Positions 400 to 37,440 of a stretch of DNA of 64,000 nt are shown in pieces; positions within the stretch are counted from its first letter, which is position 1, and each line of letters opens with the position of its first letter. The notes under the pieces are model-generated. The model saw only the letters and a list, made by a program, of their open reading frames with translations. It was not told the origin of the DNA and did no database searches. The translations under genes were made by a program, and so were the position numbers. Source of the stretch: a virus (lineage: Duplodnaviria; Caudoviricetes); the IMG/VR virus record IMGVR_UViG_3300032123_000052, positions 64,001 to 128,000 of that record. The stretch is one strand, 5' to 3'.

Positions 400-1473
400 T
401 TAATCTTTTTGGCCACTATCAAGCAGCGTTTCAGCCACTTCTTTTTTTATGTCATCAAGAGTTGTCTCTTTGGAATCTGATTTATCTGCATCAGCACCGA
501 AATTAACAGCTATGTCTTTTTGGTCTTCAATGACTAATGGCATTGACTCTTCATATGTGTCGTCATTAACAGTAGTTTCTAATAATGCATTTCCAGCCAT
601 TTCCAACAATGACAAGCTTTCATTCGAGCCTTTTATTTTCGCTTGCTCTGATTTCATTGCCAACCCTCTTTTGATTGGTTCCATAATTTCGTCTTCAAAC
701 GATTTTGTTGATAGCAGCTCTGAGATGAATATATCTCTGCCGCCTGATTTCATTTTCTTATGAACCAAGTATATCTTGATTCCGAAAAATCCATCAAATT
801 TTAGGCTTTTGCCAGCCTCTCTTTCTTTAATAGCGTGTGCTACATTTAATAAATTCCAATACTTCGCAAGTGAAGACTCTATGCCAATTATTGTATTAAT
901 GGACCGTGTCTCGAACCGGTATGGGTTTGGAGCAAGATCGACAACCGGGAAGCATTTTAGCATTCCTAGAGGCTTGCATTTTTTAGATATGAAATCTGGG
1001 CACTTCTCATGTGTGCACCCTTTCTGTCCATCAAATAGCCGATCAATCCATAAACGATCACCGTCTGGTGAAAATGTTAATTGTCGCGCATTTGTGCCTT
1101 GGCCATGACTTTTACACATTAATCCTTCTGATGTTGAAAACATGGCAAGGCAACTATCCCACATTTCTTCTGGAGTTTTATAAAAGCTCACTAGTTCGAT
1201 GCGACGCGGCATTTTGTTATTTAAAGTTTTTTCTAACTTCTTTTGGATAGGTTCGTTTAAAATCCACCTTTTAATGACAACTTGTGTTTCTGTTGCTCCC
1301 GTACGAGTTGTCTCTGTAATTTCCTTTAACATTCTAAAGAAACCAGCAGCTATAGGGTAATTCTTTTTGTTAGGGCCTTCTCCGGGCGCATAACCTGCAG
1401 AAATTTTACCCCTGAATTTTTCAACCATATTGAGAACCCCATCTTGATTATGGGTCAATCCTTTAATCAACAT
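400..1473 (-). CDS. Recombination directionality factor-like (Gp3-like) phage protein
   Basis: GKISAG..P...FFR N-terminus, C-x4-CP-x6-CKPLGML Cys cluster and YRFETRSINT segment resemble the Gp3-like/RDF family; acidic C-terminus. Confidence 0.55.
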   Translation of the reverse strand: MLIKGLTHNQDGVLNMVEKFRGKISAGYAPGEGPNKKNYPIAAGFFRMLKEITETTRTGATETQVVIKRWILNEPIQKKLEKTLNNKMPRRIELVSFYKTPEEMWDSCLAMFSTSEGLMCKSHGQGTNARQLTFSPDGDRLWIDRLFDGQKGCTHEKCPDFISKKCKPLGMLKCFPVVDLAPNPYRFETRSINTIIGIESSLAKYWNLLNVAHAIKEREAGKSLKFDGFFGIKIYLVHKKMKSGGRDIFISELLSTKSFEDEIMEPIKRGLAMKSEQAKIKGSNESLSLLEMAGNALLETTVNDDTYEESMPLVIEDQKDIAVNFGADADKSDSKETTLDDIKKEVAETLLDSGQKD

Positions 1474-2355: not shown

Positions 2356-3057
2356 TTAAAATGGAAGGTCATCCTCCATTAACCAGTCTTCGTTACTCAT
2401 TTGTACCGGGTCGCTTTCGACATCATCATATTTGGCGATTTCCCCTTTTACATCTTCTTTTTTTACAATAATACCATCGAGGTATATAATATTAATTGGG
2501 TCAAGAACCCTTTTGTTATGATCTCTGCGCCACATTCCATATTGTATTTTTATCAGATCCATTTCGAGAACAATCTGCACTGGATCAAAAATACTAAATT
2601 TATCAAGCAAATCCTGTGGAACTGGATCTGGGTGGAGCTGTTGATACACCTCTTTGTCTGTCGGCATCAGTTTTTTTATCATAAATCTCTGAAGCCAATC
2701 TCCCCTTTTATTTGCATTTATATCAAATATGGAATGGTTGCACATAAAGGCTTTTAGCCCAAGTGTTTTGTCGATCATTATATCAAGTATTTTTTCTATG
2801 TTACTTTCTATTTTATAAAATGAAATTAAAAAAATACTATACTGCGCTTTAAGGTCATCAGCCTTAACGCATAATTTTTTTCTCAAGAAAAAACCTAAAG
2901 CTTCTTCTACCCTTTTGGCCTCCCAGGTTCCCCAATCAATATCATCCTGTCTGTTGATTCGGTTTGCTATTTTGGATATGCTTCCGGACGCCCTCAAGCA
3001 TTTGAGCGTCTGATTCATTCCCTGGATTTTCGAGTACATCTGAAAGTTTTCTGTCAT
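2356..3057 (-). CDS. Hypothetical protein with SSB-like acidic C-terminal tip (MEDDLPF)
   Basis: 233-aa ORF whose 5' end overlaps the primase-helicase 3' end (start uncertain); ends DDLPF. Confidence 0.6.
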   Translation of the reverse strand: MTENFQMYSKIQGMNQTLKCLRASGSISKIANRINRQDDIDWGTWEAKRVEEALGFFLRKKLCVKADDLKAQYSIFLISFYKIESNIEKILDIMIDKTLGLKAFMCNHSIFDINANKRGDWLQRFMIKKLMPTDKEVYQQLHPDPVPQDLLDKFSIFDPVQIVLEMDLIKIQYGMWRRDHNKRVLDPINIIYLDGIIVKKEDVKGEIAKYDDVESDPVQMSNEDWLMEDDLPF

Positions 3058-6000
3058 TACTTGCCTCTATCATATCTTTTAGCCATTCGTTGAATGCGGC
3101 AGTTTTCCTATACAGGCTTTTAACCCTGATAAGGCATTTTCTTGCCACCAATGTATTTATTAATTTTGGAAGTCCATGGTTAATAGAGACTCTTGTTGTT
3201 CTCATCCTGTCGCTTCTGGCATCTACCATGGCAAGCTGACCTTCCCACACACGTTGTAGATAATCTGCGAATATTTGTTGAATAGTTTTATCTGAAAATT
3301 CATCTTCAAGAAGCAAAGAGCTTGGCTCTATGTACTTGATAATATTTTCCATAAATTCCATGTTGCCAAGTTTTTCTTGGCTCCGTTGTTGCTTTGAGTA
3401 TATATCCAATCCCATATTTCTATGACAATACAGGCGAATTAAAAGATTTACGATAAAATCAACATGTTTTTTTGTAACATATACTTTTTCCCAATCATCC
3501 TCTACGGTTGAATAACACATTACCGCAAGTGATTTTGCCATTCTTGCAACCTTTAATCTGGTTTCCTGGTTGATAAGTTGGGTGCTTGAATGAAACATTG
3601 AAAGTAGTTTTTTTTGACCTTCATTAATATGGGTCTCTATTCCATTTTCATATTCATATTGATTGGCTTTTCTTGACTTCCCCCACATCAACAAATATCT
3701 ACATTGAAAAGAAGTGAATTCGGTTGTCGGCTGCCTATAGCTATCTTCTAATTTTTCAGCATCAACATCATCGGCCTTTACTATCCATGCAATGTCGAAG
3801 CGAGACAATATTTCATCTTTAAGGCACAGGTTTTTAAGAAAACTCATACCGCTTCCAAATGATGCCGCCTTATCACTTGTCCACGCCCTTGCGTTTGACA
3901 GCATTATTTTTGCTGTTCTTGCTGGTGCCTTCTTTTTTATATTAACCATAGATATATCAACAATACCGTCTGATCTTGACCCGGTTAAATCACTGAGCGT
4001 ATCTGGACTCACCATGTTTAGCTCATCAAATATAACACAACCACCATCATTCATAGGCAATTTGCCCCATGACACTGTGGGCTTTCCTCTTATAAATGCT
4101 ATACCGCCCATCAACCCTGGTCGGGTTACTGCGCTTGACCCAGAAATCATTTCACCATATTTATAATAATTCATCAAAAACCTACTGATGAGAGTTTTGC
4201 AACACCTAGTGTCTCCACCGATAAGAACTTCTACCCAGCCCCGTTTGAGATTTGGAAAAAGCTTTTTATTATCTATCTCTGCCGACGAAAAGAATGCAAG
4301 GTCATTTAGCAGAAACATATTTCGCCTTCCGGTAACACCAGCCGCATGAGCAAGCACATCGTACCGCCTGCCAAGACTCATTTCTATTGATTCTTCTGGC
4401 AGTGGTCTAAATATTTTTAACATATCATGAACCTCTTGGTCCATGGTAAAATTCTCAACTGAAGTTGCAATAGGCTCTGTTTTATAGATATATAAAACTG
4501 CGTGCTGCAATTGTGATGATGACGCCTGTACCCCAGTAAACCTGTAAGATTTGTTTACGTATATATCCATATCTCCAAGAATATACGCATCCATTTCTAT
4601 TGCAGTGCTTTCGGCAGACCCGTCAGTTACAACACCGTCGTATTCCGACACATCTCTTACCAACCTAACGCGCAATATCTTTTTAGGAGTTGTGGTTCTT
4701 ATTTTTGCCATCTGGCATGACGGATTTATCCCACACAACTGTTTAAGCACTTTTTCTTTTTGAGCCTTAGTGCACTCAATTAGACTTAACACCTCAGTCG
4801 CTGTAACACTCACACAGCCAGGGTATCCGATATATTCTTTAGGAATATCACCTCTTATGAGAAAAAAGTCTGTATAATCCTTTTCTCTGAATTCTGGTAT
4901 AATAGGAACTTTACATCTTTTGCACGCCCCGTATAGTTTGCAGCTTGGGTCGCCAGTCTGAGGGCAGCTTACAGAAAATTGATCAGGATATTGGTACGCG
5001 CTGTCATTAAATTCACCAACGGCGGCAACTACTTCAAGCTCCCGTGACTCGTCTGATGAATAATACTTAGTCATGCGGCTTTCCTGCAATGTGACTTTGT
5101 AGAGGGTTTTTTGTACCCTGTTAAGATTTTCAGTATATGCATCTGTGTTTTTAATTAATCCCAGAAATTTTTTTACCGCTTCTTCTCCGAATCCGTTTTT
5201 GTGCATGAAATCAGTGAAGTCTGTTTCATCTCGTTTCATTTTCTTCTTGCCTTTTGCATTGACAACTTCATGCTCCAGGGTCGGATCAATCCCGAACGGA
5301 TTGATTGAAGATTGGTCCAGGTTGATTATTTTAATCTGTTTCGCAAATGGATACAGCGATTTCGCCAGCTTCAGCGCTCCTGTTTTTCCAGTATCATCGG
5401 CGTCCAGGCAGATAACAATCTCCTTATCGGTGAAGAGCTGCTTTGCCCTTTCCCGACCAAACACCTTTACTACATCAGTATTTCGCTCTGCCCCCATGGT
5501 TACAGCATTCTTGAAACCAAAACCGATGGCACAGTATGTATCCGGTTCTCCGCCGAAGAAGACGAGGGTGTTGTTGGTGAAATTAACCATCGGCGTAGGG
5601 CATATCTCCCGCCCTTTATGCCTGAACTGCCATTTGAAACGCCTATCCTTATTGAACGGGTCATACACCTTCATATTGAGAAGATCGCCGTCGGCGTTAA
5701 TGATTGGGAAGACGATCCTGCGCCGTTCATCGAGGCCGATACGGAGCGATTTAATCATGGCCTCATCTATTTTCCGGTTATCCTCCAGGTACTTCATTCG
5801 ATCTTCATCTTTCAGGAGTCGGTCAACACAATCATCCAACTCTTTCATTGGAATGGCTGCGGTATCCTTCGCCATAGCAACCAGCTCATCGCGGAGTACG
5901 TAGTTGCCCTGGCCCTTTTCTTTCCTTAACGCTTCGAGTTTAGCATAGAACTTTTTTAAATCCTCATAATACTCAAAACACTTAGGATCATCAAAACTTT

Positions 6001-6367
6001 CTGCGAAAGGAACGGCATAACTTGATTTAGTCATTTCGAGGAAATCAATTATGAAGTCATGGTAGTGGTCACCGTAATGGCCGCCTTTGATATAGTCAGT
6101 CCAGTAGGATTGGAAGTTGCCTTTGATGTCGCAGGTATGGCATCTCCATTGGCCGGTTCTTTCATTTAACGACAAAGAGGCGTGAGAGTCTACACCGCCG
6201 GTGTGGCCAGATTCATTCCAGCAGTGAAAATTCTTGTTACCGCCTTCCCTCCAGCCAAGGCGTTTGTACAAGTCGCGGTACTGACCTTCCATCAGCATGT
6301 CTGCTGAGGCAAATAATGTTTTTAATTGAGCTTTGCTTAGCTTGTACTTGGAAGGCAAATTTATCAA
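2942..6367 (-). CDS. Primase-helicase: Zn-binding domain + TOPRIM + MCM-family AAA+ helicase
   Basis: FHCW..H...WRCHTC Zn finger; TOPRIM-like GEPD and ICLDADDTG; MCM motifs: Walker A variant GGDTRCCKT, Walker B VIFDELN, arginine finger ILSRFDI. Confidence 0.85.
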   Translation of the reverse strand: MINLPSKYKLSKAQLKTLFASADMLMEGQYRDLYKRLGWREGGNKNFHCWNESGHTGGVDSHASLSLNERTGQWRCHTCDIKGNFQSYWTDYIKGGHYGDHYHDFIIDFLEMTKSSYAVPFAESFDDPKCFEYYEDLKKFYAKLEALRKEKGQGNYVLRDELVAMAKDTAAIPMKELDDCVDRLLKDEDRMKYLEDNRKIDEAMIKSLRIGLDERRRIVFPIINADGDLLNMKVYDPFNKDRRFKWQFRHKGREICPTPMVNFTNNTLVFFGGEPDTYCAIGFGFKNAVTMGAERNTDVVKVFGRERAKQLFTDKEIVICLDADDTGKTGALKLAKSLYPFAKQIKIINLDQSSINPFGIDPTLEHEVVNAKGKKKMKRDETDFTDFMHKNGFGEEAVKKFLGLIKNTDAYTENLNRVQKTLYKVTLQESRMTKYYSSDESRELEVVAAVGEFNDSAYQYPDQFSVSCPQTGDPSCKLYGACKRCKVPIIPEFREKDYTDFFLIRGDIPKEYIGYPGCVSVTATEVLSLIECTKAQKEKVLKQLCGINPSCQMAKIRTTTPKKILRVRLVRDVSEYDGVVTDGSAESTAIEMDAYILGDMDIYVNKSYRFTGVQASSSQLQHAVLYIYKTEPIATSVENFTMDQEVHDMLKIFRPLPEESIEMSLGRRYDVLAHAAGVTGRRNMFLLNDLAFFSSAEIDNKKLFPNLKRGWVEVLIGGDTRCCKTLISRFLMNYYKYGEMISGSSAVTRPGLMGGIAFIRGKPTVSWGKLPMNDGGCVIFDELNMVSPDTLSDLTGSRSDGIVDISMVNIKKKAPARTAKIMLSNARAWTSDKAASFGSGMSFLKNLCLKDEILSRFDIAWIVKADDVDAEKLEDSYRQPTTEFTSFQCRYLLMWGKSRKANQYEYENGIETHINEGQKKLLSMFHSSTQLINQETRLKVARMAKSLAVMCYSTVEDDWEKVYVTKKHVDFIVNLLIRLYCHRNMGLDIYSKQQRSQEKLGNMEFMENIIKYIEPSSLLLEDEFSDKTIQQIFADYLQRVWEGQLAMVDARSDRMRTTRVSINHGLPKLINTLVARKCLIRVKSLYRKTAAFNEWLKDMIEASNDRKLSDVLENPGNESDAQMLEGVRKHIQNSKPNQQTG

Positions 6368-9057: not shown

Positions 9058-9223
9058 ATATGCTCCTTTACACGAAAAGGTTGTGAAAACAGTTAATTGG
9101 GAAATAACATCTTCTGTAATTGTTATGTCAGATTTTTTGCAATAATCACATTAGGCGTTTGTCGCAATCACACATTAATGTTATATTATCTATATACCCT
9201 CGTTTTCATTTTCCTAATCAAGG

Positions 9224-12200
9224 TTGCCGTCGATGCCGACAAAAGAACAGAATGTTCTTCGCAGATTATCAGAGATGGAAGCTGATGCAAGAAATAACAC
9301 ATTGATGAACGTTACTGTGGCAGATACGGTAAAGACAATTCTTCATTCGGTTGAAGATGATGATATTAAATTGAGAGTGAATAAGGTATGGATCGATAAA
9401 AAATATGACAATTCCGATATCTCAGCCCAAAAATCAGTAAGAAACAAAGGCAGAATATGGGCAAATGATCTCAGAGCAGATCTTTCAATAATTGACAAAG
9501 CAACCGGCAAAGTGGTTGATAATGTCCCCAGTATTAAAGTTACTACTATTCCAAAAATCACAGACCGTGGAACCTATCTAATAAAAGGTAATGAATATCA
9601 GTTCACAAAACAATCTCGGCTAAAACCGGGAGTATATACCAAACAGCAAGCAAATGGTGAGATCAGCTCTTTTTTTAATGTTGACAAAACAATTGATTTT
9701 GACAGAGGGTTCAACAATAACTTTAAAATAAATTTCATTCCGGAGCGAAAAACTTTTACTATGGGATATGGTAGTAAGAATATCCCTCTTATAAATGCAC
9801 TCAAGGCCGTTGGTGTCACTAGGAATGAGCTTGTAGAACGATGGGGGGAACAGGTCTATGAGGCTAATGCTAAAGCGTATGATAAGCATGAGACCAGAGA
9901 TCAGAACAAATTATATGAGGCAATTTTCGGAAAGCAACCAGATACAGGGTTAAATCCGGAAAATATCAGAAAAGAAATTAAAGAAAGGCTTTTTGACACC
10001 GGGCTCGATTCTGAAACTACAAAAATTACCCTTGGCAAATCATATAAAAATGTAAATAAAGACGCCTTGCTCGATGCGTCAAAAAAGATTATAGATATCC
10101 ATGCTGGAAAGATAGAAGGTGATGATCGTGAAGCCCTTGTGTTCAAATCTTTCTTCGATGTGGAAGATCATATCAGGGAAAAGCTTGTAAAAAATAGTAA
10201 GAAGATTATAAACAACATAAAGTACAAACTTAAGAAAAATAAAACCATTAATAAATCAATCAGCTCACAAGTCTTTGACCCATTCGTTGTCGGCGTCCTC
10301 ACCAACAGCCAGCTTTCAAATCCACCAAACCAGACCAACCTCATGTCTATTATTGGTGAAAGTAATAAATATACTGTTATGGGGGAGGGTGGCATAGGAA
10401 CCTCAAATGCTATTACAAATGAAACGCGCCAGATTTCTAATAGCGAGGCCGGATATTTTGATCCGCTTCATACTCCAGAAGGCCCTGGGATAGGAATTGC
10501 TGTTCACAATACAATGGATGCTGTTAAGGTCGGAACTGATATTTATTCAAAATATCTCACCACTAATGGTGAGAAGATTTTGTTGAAGCCTACAGAAACA
10601 TGGGACAAGAATATAGCATTTCCTGATGAATATGATTTATCAAAGCAAAAACCGAAAGCAAAATCAAGAAAAGTAAAGGTAATTAGAAAAGGTAAGCTCG
10701 CCGAAATGGCAGCTTCAAAGGTTGATGCTATTATTTCAAGCCCAGTCGGACTATTTGACACTTCAGCTAATTCTATACCATTTCTTAATTCTATTCAAGG
10801 GAACCGTGGCCTTACCGCCTCCAAAATGCAGGAACAGGCACTTCCTTTAAAAGATCGGGAAAAACCCTTGTTTAACATTGTTGATGAGAAGGGTAATAGT
10901 ATAAATAAAATTCTTGCAGGATCAATGGCGTTGCCAAAATCTTCTGTTGATGGCGAGGTGACAAAGGTAACATCTGAAAATATAACTGTTACTGATAAAA
11001 ATGGAGAAAAGCATAGGACGCAACTTTATAATAATTTCTCTATGAATGCAGAAAGCTTTTTGCATAATACCCCAGTTGTAAAAGAGGGTGACTCTATTAA
11101 AAAAGGTGGCCTACTTGCTGATAATAATTTTACAAAAAATGGCCAAGTCGCAATTGGTGCGAATCTCAGGACTGCCTATTTGCCATACAAAGGATATAAC
11201 TACGAAGACTCGGCAATTATGTCGGAAAGCGGCGCTAAAAAACTCACATCTGAGCATATGTACGATTTCAAAACCAAGAGATCATCAAAGGGTGTTTTCT
11301 CAAGAGAAAAGTTCAAAGCGTATTATCCGGAAGAGTTGAGCGCAAAACAGGGTCGCAAACTCGATAAGGATGGCGTGGTTAAAATTGATCAAAAGGTCGA
11401 TCGTGATGATGTATTAATTGCTCATATGGAGCATAAACCACCGACGGCAGATGATATTGCGCTTGGGCGTCTTGACAAACAGCTTAAGAGGGACATGTCG
11501 AACAATGCTCTCAAATGGAATAAGGATGTTGTTGGCACCGTTATAAATGTCGAGAAATCGGGGAACAGCGTCGTCGTCAGTGTTAAAACAGATGAGCAGC
11601 TTAAAGTCGCTGATAAGATATCCGGGCTTCATGGCAACAAGCACATTATATCAAAGATAGTTCCAGATAGTGAAATGCCTTTCAACCCTGAGACTGGTAA
11701 GCATATAGAGCTTACCATGAATCCGATCGGTGTATCAAATAGGATTAACACCTCTCAACTTCTTGAAAATGCTGCTGGCAAAATTGCAGCGAAGACCGGT
11801 GAGCAATACAAGATTCACAATTTTTCAGGTGATGACAACTCTAAAAAAATGATGACTGATCTCAAAAAAGCAGGTCTGTCTGATAAAGACATTCTGGTTG
11901 ACCCGGAAACAGGAAAGCCGCTTCTGAACCCTGTTGCCAATGGTGTGTCAAATATACTCAAGCTGGAACATGTTGTAGACCATAAATTTTCTGCACGATA
12001 CAAAGAAGGGTATGATGCAAATGAGCAACCGGTCACCGGGGGCAAGACTGGTGGTAAGAATCTCGGCCGAATGGAAATGTCTGCAATGCTTGCTCGCGGC
12101 GCCAATGAGAATCTTCGTGAGATGTTTGAAATTAAGGGCCAAAAGAATGATGAATTCTGGAGAGCAATGGAGACAGGCCAGAGCTTGCCACCACCGAAAA

Positions 12201-15200
12201 AAGCGTTCGTCTGGGATAAAATGCTTGCCATGATGGCTGGTGCCGGCATCGATGTCGAGCAGAAAGGTAAGACGTTTGCTTTAAGACCAATGACTGATGC
12301 TGAAATTGTTGAGCGATCCCGGGGCGAGTTAAAACGGCCAGATTTGACATATCGAAAGAAAGATCTTGCCCCTATGAAGGAGGGTTTGTTTGATCCGGTT
12401 AAAGCAGGCGGATTGTTCGGAGATCACTACACTCATTTTAAACTTTCAGAAAAGGTGCTCAATCCTATAACTGCACCTGCAGCAGCTGCACTAATTGGCC
12501 TTCCGGTAAGTAAAATGAATGAAGTCATTTCTGGTAAAAAGTTTGTAAATAAAATAACCGGCGAAATTGTTAAACCAGGTGCACAGAGTGCCATATCGGG
12601 AAGTCCTGCAATAGAACTATTGCTTGGGCGAGTAAAGGTTAACAAAGAATTGGCAAATACTCAAGATATGGCAAAACGTATTACTAATCCATCAGAGTTG
12701 AATAAAGCCCATCGTAAGATCCGGTATCTTAAATCGCTTCAAGAAAACAAAATGAAACCTACCGATTATATGGTGTCCAATATGCTTGTAACACCATCGA
12801 AGTATAGGCCGGTTGTTACTATGGGTACAGACAATACGGTCATTCTTTCGGATATAAATGATTTATATCAACAGACATCACGGACAAGCAGTGCGCTTAA
12901 AGACCTTAAGGAACAAACAAAGGGTATTGGAAGTGAAGATATTGAGAACCTTCAGCTTGCTGAAATCAGGGGTGCACTTTATGCTGATGTGAAGGCTGTT
13001 TCCGGCCTTGCAGAGCCAACTTCATATTTACATAGAGTAAGGAATAAAAAAGGATTCATTACTCAGATAGATGGTGGCAAAACGAAACAAACGAAAGAGG
13101 GATTTTTCCAGGATAAGGTTTTGGAGCGTAGGCAGGATCTTGTCGGCAGATCAACTATTATTCTAAATCCGAAGCTTGGTGGTGACGAAATCGGCATTCC
13201 GAAAGATATGGCTAGTCAGATATTTCAGCCATTTATTATGCAGAAAATGGTAAGTTGGGGATATAAACCATTAGAAGCTCAGAAGCATATAAAAGACAAT
13301 AGTCCGATATTTGATAGGGCAAGGCAGGTGGTGGCTGATGAGAGGTTAGTGATAGCGAATCGCGCCCCGAGCCTTCATCGATGGAATATGACGGCATTTA
13401 AGCCGAAGCTAACTGATGGAAAATCTATAGAAGTACCATCTGTTGTAGTAAGTAAAAATTTTGGAGGAGACATAGATGGCGATACGTTCCAAATTCATAC
13501 CCCAGTAGGTAAAAAAGCTTTAAGAGAAGCTGAGACAATGAAACCTTCGGCATCAATGTTGAAAACAGGGTATGATTCTGTGCTTAACACACCAAGTATG
13601 GAGTTGGTAGCTGGTGCGTGGTTGGCGTCTAAAGGTAAAGGTGGTAAGAGTACCGGTTTCAAATTTAAAAACCTTGACGAAGCTAGATACTCTTTTAATA
13701 ACCACCATTTTACTTATGGCGATACCGTTGAGATTAATAGTACCAAAGCACCATTTGGTATACACGAAATAAACTCAGCTGCACCTGATGATGAAAAGCG
13801 TTGGGGTGTCGAACTTAACACTAATAATGTTGAAAGTTGGATAAAAGATGTCACCAAAAAACATAACGGCAAAATTGCTCTCGGTCTCGCTGATAAAATA
13901 AAAAAGGTTGGAGAAAATTATGTTACGCAGTATGGATTTACACTTGGTGTGTCTGACACTATTGTAGATGATTCAATAAGAAAACCAATTATCCAAGAAG
14001 CAAAAGCAAAAGCAATTCCAGGCCATGATGATAGTGTTGTTAGGGCGTATTTACAGGCAAAAGAAAAGGGACAAAAGGCTCTTAAGAAAAAATATGGAGA
14101 GAACACTATGCTCGGCATCGGAATATCTTCCGGAGCCGGAAAAGGAATTGGGAACATGACGGCAATTACATTTATGCCAGGAATAGTAACCGACGCAAAT
14201 GACAGGCCGATTCCAATTCCTATTGAGAAATCCTATTCTGAGGGTCTTGGTACTTTTGATTATTGGGCCGCTGCTCATGGAGCCAGGGGTGGCAATATCA
14301 AGAAATCGGTATCATCATTCAAACCTGGTTGGTTAACAAAAGACTTAATGAACTCGATTTATGATACCAGAATATACAGCGATGACCCTGTTGACACAGA
14401 TGGCCTTGAATATGATGTAAATGATAAAAAGGCTGTAATGAATAGATATCTTGCCCGCGATGTGAAAGATACTGGTGGAAAAATAGTTGCCAAGAGAAAT
14501 GAGCTGGTTGCCAGTGATGTTATCAACAAAATGAATCAGCATAAAATTAAAAAAGCATATATCCAGTCGCCTCTTACTGACCCAAGCCCTGGTGATGGGT
14601 TTTCAAGCTGGTCATATGGAACAGACTACGAGGGTAATAGGCATAATATCGGCGATAACATAGGTGTCATATCCGCACACACGTTGACCGAGCCGTCTCT
14701 TAATCTTGCAATGAAGGCGTTTCATACTGGTGGTGCGCTTGAGGTCGGGAAGAAATCTGCTGGTACTAAATTTGATGTGCTCGATAGAACACTTCGTTTT
14801 ACTAAAAACATCCCGGACAAAGCAACACTTTCCAGCATGGATGGTTTTGTTAAAACGACTTCAAAGTCTCCTATCGGCGGCTGGGACGTTGTTCTATCTA
14901 ATGGCGCGAAAGATGAGTCAAGGTACGTTGATACAAATAACGATCTTCTTGTAAAAAAAGGCGACAAGGTAAGAAGCGGAGACAAAATATCTTCCGGAAC
15001 TACAAGCGCTCATGATATACTTAAATACAAAGGTATGAAAGAAACGCAGAGGTTCCTTGTAAATCAGATAAGCGAAATCAATGAAGGGAAGCTTGACAGA
15101 AGAGATATTGAAACTATTGTGAGAGGCATTACAAACACTACTAGGGTTATTGATCCTGGATCGAGCAATTATACACCACATGATGTTGCACAATTGTCGT

Positions 15201-15571
15201 CAATAGAGTATTATAATAACAACAATGAAAAGGAAGAAGATATCGAGAACGCAGAAGGGGACCATCTTGCCCAGGATTACGGCAGTTATAAAAAACATCA
15301 GAAAATAGATTTCCAGACAATGAACAATCTTGGCAAACAAGGAAATAAACGTATAAAAGTTTTTAAAGATAGAATTAAACACGAGCCATTCCTGACTCCA
15401 GCAGGTATCAGTGCAAAAGCTCAATCTTCAGAGGATTGGGTTGCGCGACTTGCTCACAATCGGATAAAGAAAGTTCTGGAAGAGGGTACGACCCAGGGAT
15501 GGAAAACCACGATTGACCCTATAAGGGGCCATCCCATTCCGGCCTATGTGACAGGAGAATACTCATGGTAG
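9224..15571 (+). CDS. rpoBC: Single-chain DNA-directed RNA polymerase, fused beta and beta' (ATG at 9233 likely start)
   Basis: beta motifs TPEGPGIG, KMQEQALPL, GYNYEDS, DKISGLHGNK, MNPIGVSNRIN, GGKNLGRME; beta' motifs RRQDLVGRSTI, NRAPSLHR, catalytic GGDIDGD (DIDGD at 13469-13483), AAHGARGG, trigger loop TEPSLNLAMKAFHTGG; junction near 12265. Confidence 0.95.
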   Translation: MPSMPTKEQNVLRRLSEMEADARNNTLMNVTVADTVKTILHSVEDDDIKLRVNKVWIDKKYDNSDISAQKSVRNKGRIWANDLRADLSIIDKATGKVVDNVPSIKVTTIPKITDRGTYLIKGNEYQFTKQSRLKPGVYTKQQANGEISSFFNVDKTIDFDRGFNNNFKINFIPERKTFTMGYGSKNIPLINALKAVGVTRNELVERWGEQVYEANAKAYDKHETRDQNKLYEAIFGKQPDTGLNPENIRKEIKERLFDTGLDSETTKITLGKSYKNVNKDALLDASKKIIDIHAGKIEGDDREALVFKSFFDVEDHIREKLVKNSKKIINNIKYKLKKNKTINKSISSQVFDPFVVGVLTNSQLSNPPNQTNLMSIIGESNKYTVMGEGGIGTSNAITNETRQISNSEAGYFDPLHTPEGPGIGIAVHNTMDAVKVGTDIYSKYLTTNGEKILLKPTETWDKNIAFPDEYDLSKQKPKAKSRKVKVIRKGKLAEMAASKVDAIISSPVGLFDTSANSIPFLNSIQGNRGLTASKMQEQALPLKDREKPLFNIVDEKGNSINKILAGSMALPKSSVDGEVTKVTSENITVTDKNGEKHRTQLYNNFSMNAESFLHNTPVVKEGDSIKKGGLLADNNFTKNGQVAIGANLRTAYLPYKGYNYEDSAIMSESGAKKLTSEHMYDFKTKRSSKGVFSREKFKAYYPEELSAKQGRKLDKDGVVKIDQKVDRDDVLIAHMEHKPPTADDIALGRLDKQLKRDMSNNALKWNKDVVGTVINVEKSGNSVVVSVKTDEQLKVADKISGLHGNKHIISKIVPDSEMPFNPETGKHIELTMNPIGVSNRINTSQLLENAAGKIAAKTGEQYKIHNFSGDDNSKKMMTDLKKAGLSDKDILVDPETGKPLLNPVANGVSNILKLEHVVDHKFSARYKEGYDANEQPVTGGKTGGKNLGRMEMSAMLARGANENLREMFEIKGQKNDEFWRAMETGQSLPPPKKAFVWDKMLAMMAGAGIDVEQKGKTFALRPMTDAEIVERSRGELKRPDLTYRKKDLAPMKEGLFDPVKAGGLFGDHYTHFKLSEKVLNPITAPAAAALIGLPVSKMNEVISGKKFVNKITGEIVKPGAQSAISGSPAIELLLGRVKVNKELANTQDMAKRITNPSELNKAHRKIRYLKSLQENKMKPTDYMVSNMLVTPSKYRPVVTMGTDNTVILSDINDLYQQTSRTSSALKDLKEQTKGIGSEDIENLQLAEIRGALYADVKAVSGLAEPTSYLHRVRNKKGFITQIDGGKTKQTKEGFFQDKVLERRQDLVGRSTIILNPKLGGDEIGIPKDMASQIFQPFIMQKMVSWGYKPLEAQKHIKDNSPIFDRARQVVADERLVIANRAPSLHRWNMTAFKPKLTDGKSIEVPSVVVSKNFGGDIDGDTFQIHTPVGKKALREAETMKPSASMLKTGYDSVLNTPSMELVAGAWLASKGKGGKSTGFKFKNLDEARYSFNNHHFTYGDTVEINSTKAPFGIHEINSAAPDDEKRWGVELNTNNVESWIKDVTKKHNGKIALGLADKIKKVGENYVTQYGFTLGVSDTIVDDSIRKPIIQEAKAKAIPGHDDSVVRAYLQAKEKGQKALKKKYGENTMLGIGISSGAGKGIGNMTAITFMPGIVTDANDRPIPIPIEKSYSEGLGTFDYWAAAHGARGGNIKKSVSSFKPGWLTKDLMNSIYDTRIYSDDPVDTDGLEYDVNDKKAVMNRYLARDVKDTGGKIVAKRNELVASDVINKMNQHKIKKAYIQSPLTDPSPGDGFSSWSYGTDYEGNRHNIGDNIGVISAHTLTEPSLNLAMKAFHTGGALEVGKKSAGTKFDVLDRTLRFTKNIPDKATLSSMDGFVKTTSKSPIGGWDVVLSNGAKDESRYVDTNNDLLVKKGDKVRSGDKISSGTTSAHDILKYKGMKETQRFLVNQISEINEGKLDRRDIETIVRGITNTTRVIDPGSSNYTPHDVAQLSSIEYYNNNNEKEEDIENAEGDHLAQDYGSYKKHQKIDFQTMNNLGKQGNKRIKVFKDRIKHEPFLTPAGISAKAQSSEDWVARLAHNRIKKVLEEGTTQGWKTTIDPIRGHPIPAYVTGEYSW

Positions 15572-16404
15572 AAAAAATATCAATTGACTTATCATCAATT
15601 TTAAAATCCGGCAAGACTGTTGGGGATATTTTAGTTAAGCACCCATATTATACATTTGGTGGTCTTGGTGTCGCACTTGGAACATATGGCGGTATAAAAG
15701 AATATAAAAAAGAGATTGAGTTTAAGGCTCCCAGATTAAAATCGGGAGAAACTAAGAGTGACGATTCTTATAAGATGAGAGTAATAAGAAGTCACAAAAT
15801 ACAGCAGAGAGAATTCGATAAAAGTAAACCTACTAAAATTTTGTCAAAAGTTCTTGCTAATATTGGTCTTGGTTTATACACTGGTTATCAGGCTGAGAAA
15901 ATTAATGAATCTCATGAAGAAGCCTTGAATGAAGCGAGAAGATATACTAAAAGAGCTAGGGAGAATTTTAGGGAGCAGTATACTAAAAGAGCTAGGGAGC
16001 ATTTTAGGGAGCAGACTAGAAGGCGTAGTGAAGAATCTAAAAATACTTTCAGAAGTGGGTATAATAGGAGCCGTAGTACCACCCCAGGTACAAGTTCAAC
16101 AACAAATACCGCTGGTAAAAAGTTTAGCGAAACATTAAAGGGTTTTAAGACAAAGACGGAAGCTACATCGGCGTTTAGAAATGCGGCTAAAAAATACCAT
16201 CCTGACAAGGGCGGTAAGGCTGAAGATTTTTATTCTGTAAAAACAATATGGGACGCATTTAAAAATTCGGCTGGGTTTAATAAGTTATCATATTACAAGG
16301 CGTTCCTTGATGAACTTGAAAAAATATCAGGTTGTAAAATTCCACCACAATACTTATCAAAACAAAAGACAAAACCGAAAAAAGCAAAAAAGAGTCCGAA
16401 TTGA
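15565..16404 (+). CDS. Membrane-associated protein with J-domain (HPD) module and DELEKIS tag
   Basis: Two hydrophobic Gly-rich segments; FRNAAKKYHPDKGG; C-terminal AFLDELEKISG and KPKKAKK; start overlaps the RNAP stop. Confidence 0.7.
   Translation: MVEKISIDLSSILKSGKTVGDILVKHPYYTFGGLGVALGTYGGIKEYKKEIEFKAPRLKSGETKSDDSYKMRVIRSHKIQQREFDKSKPTKILSKVLANIGLGLYTGYQAEKINESHEEALNEARRYTKRARENFREQYTKRAREHFREQTRRRSEESKNTFRSGYNRSRSTTPGTSSTTNTAGKKFSETLKGFKTKTEATSAFRNAAKKYHPDKGGKAEDFYSVKTIWDAFKNSAGFNKLSYYKAFLDELEKISGCKIPPQYLSKQKTKPKKAKKSPN
15943..16014 (+). repeat. Tandem duplication, 2 x 36 bp (YTKRARE[N/H]FREQ)
   Basis: TATACTAAAAGAGCTAGGGAG[A/C]ATTTTAGGGAGCAG repeated with one mismatch. Confidence 0.9.
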
Positions 16405-28816: not shown

Positions 28817-29866
28817 ATGGAAAAAATTCCGTTCAAGAAATTTATCATTGCGCTCCTATTCTGTGGCAAAGATGTCAACGGAGTCGTAGATAAATTAAAA
28901 ACATTCCATTATAAAATAATGCCGGAAGAAGTTTCCCGCATATTCGATGAGGTTAGAACTGTCCTCCCAGAAACTATAAGAAACCTCATAAATGCCGCAG
29001 GCGTTCTCAGGCCTGGCGACGAGCAACATGCCGAATGGCTTAAACATTTTGGCATATTCGAAATTTATGATCACATCCTGAGATCTGCAAAAAATATTGA
29101 CAGTCCCCCTAATTACTTCAAATGGTGTGATGATTGTGTGTGGATTCATACTTATCAAGATGTTATGTCAATCGTTAATATTTTCCTCTTCAATGATGAG
29201 CCAGTAGAAACAATATCCGATGTTCTGATTGTCAAATTTAAAAGAAAAGTTGGTGTTGACACTCTTGAATTATATAAAAATATTTTCTGGGACACTATTG
29301 ACTTAACCGCCAAAGATGCGTTAAAATATTGTATTCCATTTAAAAACAACGCTTTGATAATAAGGCAGTTCAGGTCAGGGGCGGGCTCAGAAATAGAAAT
29401 GGCGGGTGGGCCGGCTTCTTATGACGGATGTGAGGTTCCATTTCATTTTCATGATACAGAATATATAAAATGGAAAATAGGATATAAGGTTGAGGCCCCA
29501 AAGCCAAAAGACTTCCTTGAGAAAGTTCAGACTGATAGTATGTATAAATATTATGAAACTATGAATATGACTCAGAGCATTGAGGTTGAAGAAGAAGATG
29601 GCGATAATAACATGGGAGACTTCAGTTCAACCAGAACAAAGCATCGCAATGTTGAAGAGATGAAGGCAAATGCCGCTAAGAAATGGCTTGATATGTATAT
29701 CAAAGCCAAAGAGCACATGCCTGATGACCGAAGTGATTCTGACGACTTCTTTAAGAAAATGAATCAAGTTGAGCTTGAGTTTGGTAATTGTACAGAGCAG
29801 ATTGCCAACATTGAAGATTTGCCGGATGTAATGGGTGATATAGCAGGTGATCAAACAAACCTATGA
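28817..29866 (+). CDS. Hypothetical protein, terminase small subunit candidate
   Basis: 4-bp overlap with terminase large subunit start; position only. Confidence 0.4.
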   Translation: MEKIPFKKFIIALLFCGKDVNGVVDKLKTFHYKIMPEEVSRIFDEVRTVLPETIRNLINAAGVLRPGDEQHAEWLKHFGIFEIYDHILRSAKNIDSPPNYFKWCDDCVWIHTYQDVMSIVNIFLFNDEPVETISDVLIVKFKRKVGVDTLELYKNIFWDTIDLTAKDALKYCIPFKNNALIIRQFRSGAGSEIEMAGGPASYDGCEVPFHFHDTEYIKWKIGYKVEAPKPKDFLEKVQTDSMYKYYETMNMTQSIEVEEEDGDNNMGDFSSTRTKHRNVEEMKANAAKKWLDMYIKAKEHMPDDRSDSDDFFKKMNQVELEFGNCTEQIANIEDLPDVMGDIAGDQTNL

Positions 29867-31533
29867 ACGTAACCCCAATACAATTCGCAATAGGGCTATT
29901 CTATTTAAATAGAATGCCTCTCCAAATGCCTTATGATTCTATGAGGCATCTTTATCCTATTTACAATAAACAATCTAATGCAATGATGTTCAAGTTCGGA
30001 CGCCAAACGCACAAATCAACCACGATTGCATTTAAGTTATCATTACCAGCCATAAAATATCCATCTTACCACGCTCTATATGTCGCTCCGACAGGAAACC
30101 AAGTATCAGTATTCTCTACTGATAAGCTCAACAGTGCGCTACATGAGTCTGATTTGGTGAAAGGCCATTATTTCGACACTAGAACAAAAGACCAGGTCTC
30201 ATATAAGGAAATGAAAAATGGTAGTAAGATCTATCTCCGGTCAGCATTTCATACTGCTGACTCTATTCGTGGTATATCAACTGATTTTTCAGCAATAGAT
30301 GAGATTCAGGACATCGTCAGTGACCATATTCCAGTTATTGAACAATCCATGAGCCATAGTCTGGCGAAGTGGGAGCATTTAGTAAAAAAATATCCTACAC
30401 TCCCTATGCATTTGTTCAATTGTAAATTATATGCCGGTACTCCTAAAACAGTTGAAAATACAATGGAAAGGTATTGGGATGAATCTACCCAGAATGAATG
30501 GGTTGTCAAATGTCAGAATACCGGATGTAAAAAATATAACCTCATCAATGAATACAATATTGGTGATACTTGTCTGATATGTAATAAATGCGGAAAGCCT
30601 ATATATTACCGTGATGGGCAATGGGTCACAATGAACAATGAAAATCCATATATCGATGGATTTAGGCTCCCTCAGATAGTTTTGGATTGGGTAAACAATA
30701 TAAGGAACCCTGAAGCATGGCAGATAAATGTTATACAAACAAGAAAAATATATTCTACCGAAAAATATTTTAATGAAGTTCTTGCATTACCATACGCTGC
30801 GGCAAAACATCCTTTAAGCGTTGTTGAGATCAAAAGGTGCTGCAAGGAATACGAAATGGTAGAAGAAGATTGGGTACAGAGTGATCCACTTTCAAAAAAT
30901 AGTTTAACGTTTGCCGGAATTGATTGGGGGAAAGGCGATACCGCCTCTGGCACATCGTATTCAATGTTGACAATTGGCGCATGGCATCAAGCTAGATTTA
31001 AAGTATTATTTAAAAAGAAATATACTGGTAGATTGTCAGCACCAATACCACAAGTAAAAGATATGATTAGAATAATCAATCGATTCAGATGCGTTCTCAC
31101 TATAGCTGATACAGGAGATGGAAGAACAGCGAACGCACTTATGGTTGATGCTTTAGGGGTACCAAGGTTCGGGGAAATATATGAACACGGTACTTTAAAA
31201 AAGAAAATCAGATGGGATAAAGATAAAGGTTATTATATCATGAATCGTACCCAAGTGATGACTGATATGATAATGGAAATAAAAAGAGATGAGGTTGATT
31301 TTTTTAAGTACGACCAGTTTAAAGAATATCAACCCGATTTCACTGGCATATTTTCAGAATATAGCGAACAATTAAGAATGACAAAATATGATCATAATGT
31401 TCCCGACGATGCCTTCCATTCATATATGTTTAGTAGGGTAGCATGCAAAATACTAAGAGGAGAATATTCAAAATATCTTACTGGTGGCGCTGATCCATTT
31501 GCAGAAGAGGAGCCATCAGCAATATCAATATAG
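29863..31533 (+). CDS. terL: Terminase large subunit (GpA-like)
   Basis: Walker A FGRQTHKST, RGISTD + Walker B AIDEIQD, coupling motif AGTPKT, Zn ribbon CQNTGC/CNKC, nuclease GIDWG and PDDAFHS. Confidence 0.9.
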   Translation: MNVTPIQFAIGLFYLNRMPLQMPYDSMRHLYPIYNKQSNAMMFKFGRQTHKSTTIAFKLSLPAIKYPSYHALYVAPTGNQVSVFSTDKLNSALHESDLVKGHYFDTRTKDQVSYKEMKNGSKIYLRSAFHTADSIRGISTDFSAIDEIQDIVSDHIPVIEQSMSHSLAKWEHLVKKYPTLPMHLFNCKLYAGTPKTVENTMERYWDESTQNEWVVKCQNTGCKKYNLINEYNIGDTCLICNKCGKPIYYRDGQWVTMNNENPYIDGFRLPQIVLDWVNNIRNPEAWQINVIQTRKIYSTEKYFNEVLALPYAAAKHPLSVVEIKRCCKEYEMVEEDWVQSDPLSKNSLTFAGIDWGKGDTASGTSYSMLTIGAWHQARFKVLFKKKYTGRLSAPIPQVKDMIRIINRFRCVLTIADTGDGRTANALMVDALGVPRFGEIYEHGTLKKKIRWDKDKGYYIMNRTQVMTDMIMEIKRDEVDFFKYDQFKEYQPDFTGIFSEYSEQLRMTKYDHNVPDDAFHSYMFSRVACKILRGEYSKYLTGGADPFAEEEPSAISI

Positions 31534-35649: not shown

Positions 35650-37440
35650 ATGATTAAATATATCCAATACGATTCGATTGATGAAACCGGTCAGCACATT
35701 ATACCGATAAACTCAATCGAACAGCTTAACAAAACTGCTACGAGCAACTACGCTCCGGAGCTGATGAAGGTTATTCTCAACCTCAATCGGAAGCCAGAGC
35801 GGTACTATGTTGTTATCAATGCTCTTGGGTCATATGAAGTTTGGGGTTCCAATCGTAATGGTGATGCCTTCCCGGAAGCAGGCCTTTCCCACAAATCATT
35901 ACGTACTGATATGAATACCGCAAATGATTATGGGTATAAAACATTTGAATATTATGCAAAATTCTATAAGCACCATGTGAATAAAGATCCAAGTCGTTCT
36001 TTTGGCGAAATAATATTTGCCCACTGGAATCCTGTGCTTCGTCGTGTTGAGTTGATTGCCGCAATCGATGTGGTGAAGGGTGCTGATATAGTAAGGTCTC
36101 TTGAAACTGGCGAGCCTGTAAGTGTTAGTATGGGTTGTCGGGTCCGGTTTGATCGCTGTAGCATTTGTCAACATAAAGCAAAAACCAGGAAGACCTACTG
36201 CAAGCATCTCAAGAATTATATGGGCCAGATAGTTACTCCCGAACTTGCCGCCTTATGGTCCAAAGAGCTTGGGAAAATAATACTTCCTGGTACTATGGTT
36301 TTCGCTTTCAATGATTATCCTCGATTTTTTGATATATCGAAAGTTTTTATAGGTGCCGACCGTACATCGTTTGTTTTGGGTAAGGCTGCATCGGCAGGCC
36401 TAGTTATAGCTTCTGTAGATTTGGCAGACGCATACGGAGTAACCGATGCGATGTTTGATAAGGCTGCCCAAGTTAAAAAAGAGGGTGACATCGATAAAGA
36501 GGTAGGGGCTTTGGGGAAAGATGATATCGATGGTACTATGAAACCTGCTGATAATGTCACTGTTTTCAGAAAAGCCCTCGATGAAAAAATGAATAAAACA
36601 ATAGCTGCCGAACCAAAACTTCCGAACGATCTTCTCGACTCAATGGCGTCAACCCACCCATTAAATAGAATATTATCTACTATATTAGGCCTTGGTATAC
36701 ACCCGAAGCCTGACGAGTTTCAAAGAATCGTTCTGATACGGGCTGGACAAAAGCCACTTGCTGATGAGTTGGAAAAGCAGGGTACTATATTTGACTATAA
36801 GAGCGATGTCGAACCACAAGATATAGATATATCAAATTATTATTATGACGACACTCTCGCTAGATCACTTTCTACTTATATCGAAAAGAGAAGTTGTTTT
36901 CCGACGTTCCTTCAATCAAGGTTGTTGGTGGTTATGGAGAAAACAGCTCAGTTTCCTCCTCCTATTGGAAAAGAAAAAAAGGAATTTAAAATCGGACCAA
37001 AGGTAGCGGTTCTTGTCGGGCTTGCGGCGCTTTATGCTGGATTGAAATTAAAGGCAAAAGGCTACGGGTCGAAACAACTTGCTGAGATTTTTACAAAGAA
37101 ACAATGGCTTCGCTCTATTATCGGTGGCGGGGTAATGTATAAAATATTTGAAGAGATAGGTAAAGCACAACACGAAAATCCGATGCTTGGTCCGGCTGTT
37201 AATTATGAAGGTGCACTCCGTGACACCAATTTTTCTGGCAAAATTGTGAAGCAATCAGCATTAAATGTATTGACCGATGCAATAGTCCTTCCAGGCGCGT
37301 ACATAATAAATTCATATAATCAAGACACATTGTATAAAACCAGTAAACTGTTTTTTCCTGAGCAAAGTATTAATAATAATTTTGCGCTGGATAATATAAA
37401 CTCAGAATTATTGAAAAAAAAGTTGTTTGAAATCAAATAA
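35650..37440 (+). CDS. Prohead maturation protease (HK97/assemblin-like) with long C-terminal extension
   Basis: RNGDAF, KHHVNKD, VELIAAID, VSVSMGC (catalytic Ser candidate), CSIC..C.H; upstream of scaffold-like genes and MCP. Confidence 0.8.
   Translation: MIKYIQYDSIDETGQHIIPINSIEQLNKTATSNYAPELMKVILNLNRKPERYYVVINALGSYEVWGSNRNGDAFPEAGLSHKSLRTDMNTANDYGYKTFEYYAKFYKHHVNKDPSRSFGEIIFAHWNPVLRRVELIAAIDVVKGADIVRSLETGEPVSVSMGCRVRFDRCSICQHKAKTRKTYCKHLKNYMGQIVTPELAALWSKELGKIILPGTMVFAFNDYPRFFDISKVFIGADRTSFVLGKAASAGLVIASVDLADAYGVTDAMFDKAAQVKKEGDIDKEVGALGKDDIDGTMKPADNVTVFRKALDEKMNKTIAAEPKLPNDLLDSMASTHPLNRILSTILGLGIHPKPDEFQRIVLIRAGQKPLADELEKQGTIFDYKSDVEPQDIDISNYYYDDTLARSLSTYIEKRSCFPTFLQSRLLVVMEKTAQFPPPIGKEKKEFKIGPKVAVLVGLAALYAGLKLKAKGYGSKQLAEIFTKKQWLRSIIGGGVMYKIFEEIGKAQHENPMLGPAVNYEGALRDTNFSGKIVKQSALNVLTDAIVLPGAYIINSYNQDTLYKTSKLFFPEQSINNNFALDNINSELLKKKLFEIK

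Follow-up and report, generated by a model that had tools for sequence, protein, structure and literature searches.

Whether a phage can own an RNA polymerase of the bacterial type in a single chain, and how such an enzyme would be assembled, directed to promoters and brought into action, is the question raised by a gene at 9224–15571 of a 64,000-nucleotide stretch of phage DNA (Caudoviricetes; IMG/VR record IMGVR_UViG_3300032123_000052), hereafter called the window. The window comprises bases 64001–128000 of a virus record that is 208,085 bp long and was obtained from marine sediment by metagenomics, and the completeness of this phage genome was 100% according to CheckV. The only sequencing runs found to contain this DNA were DNA runs of marine sediment, probably those of the source sample, with no RNA run among them. 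Positions are given in window numbering unless they carry the prefix G000, which denotes whole-genome numbering (G000:190269-198376 corresponds to 126269-134376 in window numbering), and residue numbers were counted throughout from the TTG at 9224. The product of the gene is best explained as the catalytic core of a bacterial-type RNA polymerase owned by the phage, with beta and beta' in one chain. The working form of the enzyme is most likely a two-protein holoenzyme, in which this single-chain core is joined by a sigma factor of the phage itself.

The plus-strand frame was open over 2115 codons with no stop, in agreement with a preliminary description of this DNA, which had given one open reading frame of 2115 amino acids (aa) at 9224–15571. 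The start itself more likely lies at the ATG at 9233, because the homologues P0002 and P0004 start at MPTKEQ and AAGG is found 9 nucleotides (nt) upstream; the true product would then probably be 2112 aa long. The chain had also been called compact, which was valid in a relative sense only, as its 2115 aa compare with 2280–2749 aa for 24 sampled bacterial beta plus beta' pairs. The complete genome contained one copy of the polymerase gene, and no near-identical DNA was found in the phage collection.

9233–15571, plus strand: polymerase gene P0001 from its likeliest start, ATG (MPTKEQ..), 2112 aa; the longest open reading frame, from the TTG at 9224, has 2115 aa.

The domain order was determined using Pfam profiles, a phmmer search of PDB chains, and alignment to E. 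coli RpoB and RpoC, the last of which was aided by family members and used for mapping the individual elements. All three supported the description of beta regions followed by beta' regions within one reading frame. In the case of Pfam, the beta domains Rpb2_3 and Rpb2_6 were placed at residues 369–939 and the beta' domains Rpb1_1, Rpb1_2, Rpb1_3 and Rpb1_5 at residues 1137–1983, with Rpb2_6 (194.8 bits) and Rpb1_2 (63.6 bits) scoring above the cut-off. In the case of phmmer, beta chains matched residues ~55–1040 and beta' chains residues ~1094–1999 at E 1e-59 to 1e-74, and the best matches were Firmicute enzymes. The junction, previously put near 12265, was located at nt ~12271/12272 and has no linker: the end of beta, ..AGIDVEQKGK (residue 1016; ..LGINIELEDE in E. 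coli), runs directly into TFALRPMT.. at approximately residue 19 of E. coli beta', and the initial ~18 residues of beta' are absent from the phage chain. The mapped elements were as follows.

9224–12271, plus strand: beta module, residues 1–1016, with the lobes, the rifampicin (Rif)-pocket region, the flap, the double-psi barrel with DKISGLHGNKHIISK, and the C-terminal clamp part.
10295–10387, plus strand: equivalent of rifampicin cluster I, residues 358–388, aligned to E. coli rpoB.
11420–11503, plus strand: beta flap tip region, residues 733–760, aligned to E. coli beta 885–915; residues 741–756 touch sigma region 4 in the complex model described below.
12272–15568, plus strand: beta' module, residues 1017–2115, beginning at approximately E. 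coli residue 19, with neither zinc ribbon nor SI3.
12845–12988, plus strand: beta' clamp helices, residues 1208–1255, the main sigma docking site; residues 1205–1273 touch sigma residues 39–58 in the complex model.
13463–13483, plus strand: catalytic Mg loop GGDIDGD, residues 1414–1420, with the Asp triad intact.
14252–14362, plus strand: bridge helix, residues 1677–1713.
14654–14821, plus strand: trigger loop in two arms, free of SI3, residues ~1811–1866, with M, K (for R) and H at E. coli M932/R933/H936.

The catalytic GGDIDGD named in the preliminary description was thus found to keep all three Asp residues, and DKISGLHGNKHIISK was aligned as the counterpart of E. coli beta 1060–1080. Switch 3, lid, clamp helices, rudder, switch 2, F-loop, bridge helix, trigger loop and the C-terminal conserved region were well aligned in canonical order, the C-terminal arm of the trigger loop being aligned by eye. 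With the double-psi barrel of beta and that of beta' both in place, no universal catalytic element is missing. The E. coli insertions SI1 and SI2 of beta and SI3 of beta' were missing from the fused chain. The automatic listing of deletions relative to bacteria overlooked the zinc ribbon owing to alignment scatter, and the E. coli and family alignments were used instead. According to these, the beta' zinc ribbon (site C70/72/85/88) is deleted in the whole clade of fused enzymes, those resembling the enzyme of Salmonella phage Arash included, and the second zinc site (C814/888/895/898) reads P, D, S and S in the window polymerase. Moreover, the E. coli positions D516, H526 and S531, which are the classic positions of rifampicin resistance, correspond to N, E and T, respectively, in the phage chain. 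Given these known positions, the enzyme is predicted to be insensitive to rifampicin.

Two parts of the polymerase were modelled, namely, the beta' half and residues 690–1310. The AlphaFold model of the beta' half, built from a 45-row family alignment, showed a mean predicted local distance difference test score (pLDDT) of 86.6 and a predicted template modelling score (pTM) of 0.77. Using Foldseek, this model matched 50 bacterial beta' chains with template modelling (TM) scores of 0.74–0.80, those for Firmicute beta' being 0.79–0.80, and no phiKZ or AR9 chain was among the top 50 matches. The earlier statement that the chain stays recognisably close to bacterial RpoB/RpoC therefore held, and it held for a phage-encoded fusion.

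As had been noted before, no alpha, omega or sigma gene is present in the window. Alpha (PF01000, PF01193) and omega (PF01192) were also missing from the complete 208,085-bp genome in a profile search, the controls of which were positive in 14/14 reference genomes. One sigma gene was found outside the window.

G000:197684-198376: sigma-70-family gene P0122, 230 aa, ~118 kb downstream of the polymerase gene.

P0122 was first detected via a weak Sigma70_r2 signal (E 0.05). Its match to Sigma70_r3 reached E 7e-5 and 23.3 bits (curated cut-off 25.3), and a helix-turn-helix is present at the C-terminus. Because no single Pfam domain reached its curated cut-off, membership in the sigma-70 family rests on the profile search, in which a profile of 40 members of the P0122 family matched RpoS and SigA at E 1e-8 and the sigma chain 8x6g_H over residues 6–228. 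Judged from these matches, P0122 is a sigma-70-family factor with regions 2, 3 and 4. It contains no cysteine and is homologous to Arash gp10, an annotated sigma factor (E 5e-20). A sigma was found in 5/5 related genomes searched, namely, three complete metagenomic genomes, Arash, and Vibrio phage D69, and the sigma and polymerase identities moved together across the five (83/86, 67/71, 65/65, 28/30 and 29/29.5%). Similarly, 102 sigma clusters of 51–92% identity mirrored the close clade of the polymerase, and several of them sit on contigs as long as the polymerase contigs. One 87%-identical homologue is deposited under a Thorarchaeota metagenome-assembled genome (MAG) and is probably mis-binned. 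No second sigma or polymerase was found in the genome using phmmer with P0122, PF04545 and PF08281; a search with PF00940 was also negative but carries no weight, as its control matched nothing anywhere.

Both docking sites for sigma are kept in the phage polymerase, one at the tip of the beta flap and one at the clamp helices of beta'. Sigma was modelled with polymerase residues 690–1310, which contain the flap, the C-terminal end of beta and the beta' clamp, made contiguous by the fusion. The interface score (interaction prediction score from aligned errors, ipSAE) was 0.79 as the median of three runs, while the best of three controls gave 0.00. The pass mark used was reached by 58/80 solved complexes and by 2/110 mismatched pairs. 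Contact agreement between runs was at least 55%, and the partner pLDDT was at least 68. In the model, sigma residues 39–58 (region 2.1–2.2) contact polymerase residues 1205–1273, sigma region 4 contacts residues 741–756, and the zipper equivalent at polymerase residues 1040–1051 is also contacted. Since many sigma–core structures have been solved, the pass may partly reflect memory; the model shows a preserved likeness to the textbook sigma–core interface and is not proof of binding. The preliminary description had proposed an alpha-independent, single-polypeptide enzyme. The second part of this proposal was not supported, because the sigma gene is conserved with the polymerase, the docking sites are kept and the model docks sigma at them; the core is therefore single-chain, whereas the working enzyme probably consists of more than one polypeptide. 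Alpha-independence of the core is plausible from the gene content.

The proposed working of the enzyme is as follows. The two halves, being tethered, would assemble intramolecularly with neither the alpha dimer nor omega, the phage encoding neither subunit. Promoters would be located via the 230-aa sigma seated on the retained clamp helices and flap tip, in bacterial fashion. Core and sigma would be carried in the capsid and injected together with the DNA, which would allow the first phage genes to be read without the host enzyme, and the loss of all cysteines and zinc sites may let the chain traverse tail and envelope in an unfolded state and regain its fold afterwards. Polymerase synthesised during infection may also act at later stages. 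Taken as a whole, a phage-owned single-chain core with its sigma, free of alpha and omega, delivered by the virion and insensitive to rifampicin, is considered reasonably probable.

Virion delivery of the holoenzyme is favoured with moderate confidence on account of the Arash particle proteome, the synteny of the sigma block, and the depletion of cysteine. In the mass spectrometry (MS) of Arash particles, gp206, the larger part of the Arash polymerase, gave the most spectra of all proteins (3516 spectra, 100% coverage), more than the capsid protein, while gp216, its smaller part, gave 1210 spectra and gp10 gave 467 spectra at 100% coverage (PMC10585845). The gene for sigma is part of a conserved set of neighbouring virion-protein genes, a block that is syntenic with Arash gp4 to gp10.

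G000:190269-198376: sigma block, consisting of a 1108-aa protein, a gp6-like protein, a gp8-like protein (988 aa), and sigma.

The particle proteome of Arash includes gp4, gp6, gp8 and gp10 (PMC10585845). A Baseplate_J protein comes after the sigma block. In the case of cysteine, the polymerase contains 0 in 2115 residues, whereas ~27 would be expected from the genome average of 1.26%. The aligned fused family has 0–6 cysteines, most members having just the four ligands of the second zinc site, and 52 full-length cluster representatives have 0–9 (mode 4). In comparison, the 24 sampled bacterial beta plus beta' pairs have 9–31 (median 16) and the phage enzymes of the YerA41 type 14–16. The shedding of cysteines and zinc sites would be expected of a chain that leaves the capsid unfolded, crosses an oxidising envelope and refolds unaided. 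The tape measure protein and the 1108-aa protein heading the sigma block are the other large proteins of this genome without cysteine.

Several points weigh against this account. As a low cysteine content is a general feature of structural proteins here, the cysteine signal is suggestive and not specific, and zinc-freeness is not needed for the function of the family, because most members keep the second zinc site. Arash particles also yielded ribonucleotide reductases and RNA ligases, and the authors note possible carry-over of abundant non-structural proteins (PMC10585845). The polymerase gene lies away from the portal gene here, although the two are adjacent in Arash, D69 and a further relative (L107). 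The sigma could serve the host core, also or instead of the phage core. Furthermore, an ordinary sigma-70-type promoter-like element, which the host enzyme could read early, lies upstream of the polymerase gene.

9159–9187, plus strand: sigma-70-type promoter-like element TTGTCG-17-TATATT, with TGT before the -10, ending 36 nt before 9224.

These observations bear on an alternative in which the polymerase is not carried in the virion. The host enzyme would read the gene early, the single-chain enzyme and the phage sigma would take over middle and late transcription, following the logic of T7, and cysteine loss would have another cause. Such a scheme agrees with the conservation of the upstream element, as TTGnnn-17/18-(TGn)TATATT, with the spacing of 17 here, was kept upstream of the polymerase gene in 7 phages. 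It also agrees with the position of the gene beside replication genes and outside the head module, with similar promoter-like sites ahead of structural genes, and with possible carry-over in the Arash proteome. The form TTGnnn-17/18-TATA[AT]T occurred at 41 sites in the genome, 21 of which fall in the intergenic 8.8% (a 5.8-fold enrichment), and sites of this form precede structural genes and the sigma block. However, the top spectral count of the Arash homologue, above that of the capsid protein, the sigma gene within the virion block, and the family-wide purge of cysteines other than zinc ligands, unlike the bacterial or YerA41-type enzymes, weigh against it, and it was judged unlikely. Virion and non-virion roles are not mutually exclusive.

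A second element lies just upstream of the promoter-like element.

9122–9149, plus strand: upstream element GTTATGTCA-N11-ATAATCAC, a regulator site or part of a promoter.

This 28-bp element, in the form GTTATACCA-N11-ATAATCAC, was found just upstream of the polymerase promoter in five relatives (L010–L014, 63–86% protein identity) and is degenerate in L015. In the form GTTATACCA-N11-AT(A/T)AT(C/A)AC, approximately 12 intergenic copies are present genome-wide (G000 66327, 131456, 147038, 147969, 150734, 171659, 190158 and others). Three copies lie 75–85 nt ahead of the starts of the polymerase gene, the gene of the 1108-aa protein of the virion block, and G000:171771. Because some copies are palindromic (GTTATA..TATAAC), an operator is as likely as a promoter part. 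TAACTAT/TGGTATAAC had been considered as an extended -10 element and was rejected, as it is half of the partly palindromic 28-bp element. The de novo promoter search using k-mer and dyad counts returned mainly the Shine-Dalgarno sequence and AT-rich words.

Another alternative concerns the composition of the enzyme and would be compatible with either a virion or a non-virion role. The single chain would draw on alpha of the host, and perhaps also its omega, to gain stability or to be regulated via the alpha C-terminal domain. The closeness of the chain to the bacterial fold and the retained C-terminal conserved region of beta' are consistent with this, and cellular beta–beta' fusions (Helicobacter, Wolbachia) still use alpha. 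On the other hand, genes for alpha and omega are missing from the complete genome, and the family infects diverse hosts (Salmonella, Vibrio and sediment bacteria) at ~30% identity. A conserved fit to host alpha would be harder to maintain across hosts this different. The phiKZ and AR9 polymerases are also described as complexes of phage-encoded pieces only (PMC7598289, PMC7824862). Recruitment of host alpha was regarded as rather improbable.

The polymerase belongs to a large family of its own. With a word-indexed search, 210 related proteins were recovered at E<=1e-10; among the 120 matches listed (90%-identity clusters), most were 2000–2140 aa long, with ~100% query cover and 31–91% identity. 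In an exhaustive search with a 401-aa probe spanning the junction, E<=1e-30 was reached by 832 sequences, each representing one cluster at 50% identity. Among the best 150 of the 832, ~140 span the junction in a single aligned stretch, and about a dozen of those cluster representatives stop ~92 aa past the Asp triad. The only cultured relatives found were Arash and the Vibrio phages D69, D148 and D181. In D148 and D181, the polymerase region matches in three parts, and among these lies an annotated homing endonuclease, which D69 does not have.

A maximum-likelihood tree was calculated from 50 sequences and 1992 columns (LG+C20+F+G4 with posterior mean site frequencies, quick search), with support from the Shimodaira–Hasegawa-like approximate likelihood ratio test (SH-aLRT). 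The fused proteins and the Arash and D69 enzymes formed one clade with 24 bacteria opposite, both groupings having an SH-aLRT of 100, in a tree to be read with its quick search, long branches, heterogeneous composition and many unsampled phyla in mind. The bacterial sample consisted mostly of Bacillota, Actinomycetota and Patescibacteria, together with Atribacterota, E. coli and three MAG contigs labelled Bacteroidota or Gammaproteobacteria, and the tree was made without cyanobacteria, Thermus, the Helicobacter/Wolbachia fusions and mReC sequences. Of the phylogenetic comparisons suggested as a check in the preliminary description, the one against RpoB/RpoC placed the polymerase outside the host rpoBC clade. 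The polymerases of YerA41 and Cobetia phage Carin-5 also fell outside the fused clade. As the Arash-like pair is nested among fused lineages, the two-gene form is probably derived from the fused form. Moreover, among 592 confirmed bacterial beta' genes in 185,579 species genomes, the best 80 were 24–27% identical to the phage chain.

A recently captured or mis-assembled host rpoB–rpoC (frameshift artefact, contamination or decaying gene) shares the domain order of the rpoBC operon, found no other support and is extremely improbable, as the same in-frame junction recurs in hundreds of independent clusters, the clade is separate from bacteria at <=27% identity, all catalytic residues are conserved, and the phage genome around the gene is complete and has genes for terminase, portal and tape measure; recent host capture was ruled out by the shared junction, the separate clade and the low bacterial identity.

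Approximately one quarter of the listed homologues (P0003, P0006, P0013 and others) carry an intein of ~515–536 aa with a LAGLIDADG domain. It is inserted directly after the third catalytic Asp, equivalent to window ~13484, with its first boundary between ..DFDGD and C/S and its last between VQD and TFQIH. These inteins end in Asp instead of Asn, and the +1 residue is Thr. Some family members are labelled 'beta subunit/beta' subunit' in the annotation of the Joint Genome Institute, and no published description of a fused, sigma-associated polymerase family was found in full-text literature searches. The family is common in metagenomes and visible in databases, and apparently unstudied. In its fullest form, the proposal is of a packaged orthogonal holoenzyme in a widespread phage lineage, threaded unfolded and refolding without zinc, disulfides, alpha or omega, with a J-domain protein possibly recruiting host Hsp70; this wider form is put forward tentatively. 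The recruitment of Hsp70 by the J-domain protein is itself speculative.

15565–16404, plus strand: J-domain protein (..KYHPDKGG..), 279 aa, overlapping the polymerase stop by 7 nt; a context gene.

Genes for J-domain homologues are found close to the polymerase gene in L010 and at a distance of three genes in L105. The J-domain gene as an extra subunit of the whole family was rejected, as its conservation is limited to close relatives and to L105, where it is displaced. Giant neighbours were likewise rejected as hidden polymerases, the 2302-aa protein being a coiled coil and a 2604-aa protein a beta-helix fibre. The other context genes were as follows.

400–1473, minus strand: Gp3-like (recombination directionality factor-like) protein.
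2942–6367, minus strand: 1141-aa protein, probably a primase-helicase, with a weak Toprim match and a significant MCM-type P-loop match.
29863–31533, plus strand: large terminase (phrog_675, E 3e-55).
35650–37440, plus strand: protein with a head-maturation protease region.
46879–53787: giant coiled-coil protein, 2302 aa.
G000:14233-17175: tape measure protein (PhageMin_Tail), 980 aa, no cysteine.
G000:47859-49946: portal, homologue of Arash gp204 (E 4e-71).

The host signals of the genome conflict. A protein with Fib_succ_major and a weak type IX secretion system sorting domain (G000:188718-190016) points to the Fibrobacteres–Bacteroidota group, whereas strong use of the Shine-Dalgarno sequence (AAAGGAGG) and the TTGnnn/TATAAT-type sites argue against a Bacteroidota host.

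The family breaks two rules, namely, that the known phage multisubunit polymerases (phiKZ, AR9) are fragmented, sigma-less and far from the bacterial ones, and that sigma-encoding phages have no polymerase of their own (PMC7824862, PMC13282480). If the packaged holoenzyme is true, it would add a sigma-dependent class to the virion RNA polymerases and would be a minimal bacterial polymerase of natural origin that does without alpha. If the chain is active alone or with sigma, it would provide a natural test of whether alpha and omega serve assembly only. An active enzyme would also be a compact, cysteine-free and probably rifampicin-insensitive two-gene holoenzyme, useful as an orthogonal transcription system, and a tractable case of the delivery of a ~240-kDa enzyme through a phage tail. 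The cultured Salmonella and Vibrio relatives make all of these points testable now.

Among known systems, the polymerases of crAss-like phages (gp66), YonO, and the P23-45 enzyme fused to a tape measure are also single-chain, two-barrel enzymes, some of them delivered by the virion. They share only barrel motifs with the cellular enzymes (PMC7481178, PMC7824862). The window polymerase, unlike these, aligns with bacterial beta and beta' nearly end to end. Cellular rpoB–rpoC fusions (Helicobacter, Wolbachia) and an engineered E. coli fusion are joined head to tail at adjacent termini. Those of Helicobacter and Wolbachia are cellular enzymes that have alpha, omega and zinc sites and fall within the bacterial phylogeny.

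The transcription of phiKZ and AR9 is rifampicin-resistant. Like the window phage, they encode relatives of beta and beta' without alpha or omega, and one set is packaged in the virion. Their beta and beta', however, are each divided into 2–3 pieces and occur in two sets, whereas the window phage has one fused gene in one copy, and their distance from the bacterial enzyme is far greater. They also have no sigma (PMC7824862), whereas the window phage has a sigma-70-family factor. The published picture is of fragmented beta/beta' in two sets with no sigma in phiKZ-type phages and of sigma-encoding phages without polymerases (PMC7824862, PMC13282480, PMC7598289).

Among tailed phages with recognisable cellular-type beta and beta', the mReC phages (Weinheimer & Aylward 2020) have them as separate genes according to supplement 5 of that study, with the motif NADxDGD and a major capsid protein of the Gp23 type. 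The window phage has GGDIDGD, and PF07068 is absent from its genome; the distinction is drawn from gene arrangement, motif and capsid, the comparison including no mReC sequence. Yersinia phage YerA41 (L102) and Carin-5 (L103), two tailed phages with polymerases of one separate lineage, also have cellular-type subunits, but in the order beta' then beta, with normal cysteine content and outside the fused clade. In Carin-5, an annotated sigma gene lies immediately upstream of the polymerase. As this core and sigma belong to a different lineage, the combination of a phage-owned core with a sigma may have arisen repeatedly.

With the bacterial core and its sigma-70-family factor (closest structures, Firmicute 7l7b, 8i23 and 6wvj), the phage system shares domain order, catalytic motifs and fold (TM ~0.8), as well as the flap tip, the clamp helices, sigma regions 2/3/4 and sigma-70-like promoter-shaped sites. 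It differs from bacterial RNA polymerase in the fused chain, the lack of alpha and omega genes, the missing zinc ribbon, the lost second zinc site, the lack of cysteine, GGDIDGD in place of NADFDGD, and a separate clade at ~25% identity. The nearest relatives are the enzymes of Arash (gp206 + gp216, with gp10) and of Vibrio phages D69, D148 and D181, of which the Arash enzyme has been annotated and detected by MS but never studied. They belong to the same clade, have the same beta–beta' junction and the same ribbon deletion, and, in Arash, the homologous sigma gp10 lies in the syntenic block of virion genes. At ~30% identity to the window polymerase, they carry the motif AADYDGD and keep the four ligands of the second zinc site with 1–2 other cysteines. 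Their coding sequence is divided between two genes, with the break ~92 aa past the Asp triad, so that in Arash beta and the N-terminal part of beta' form gp206 (1525 aa) and the C-terminal part of beta' forms gp216 (606 aa).

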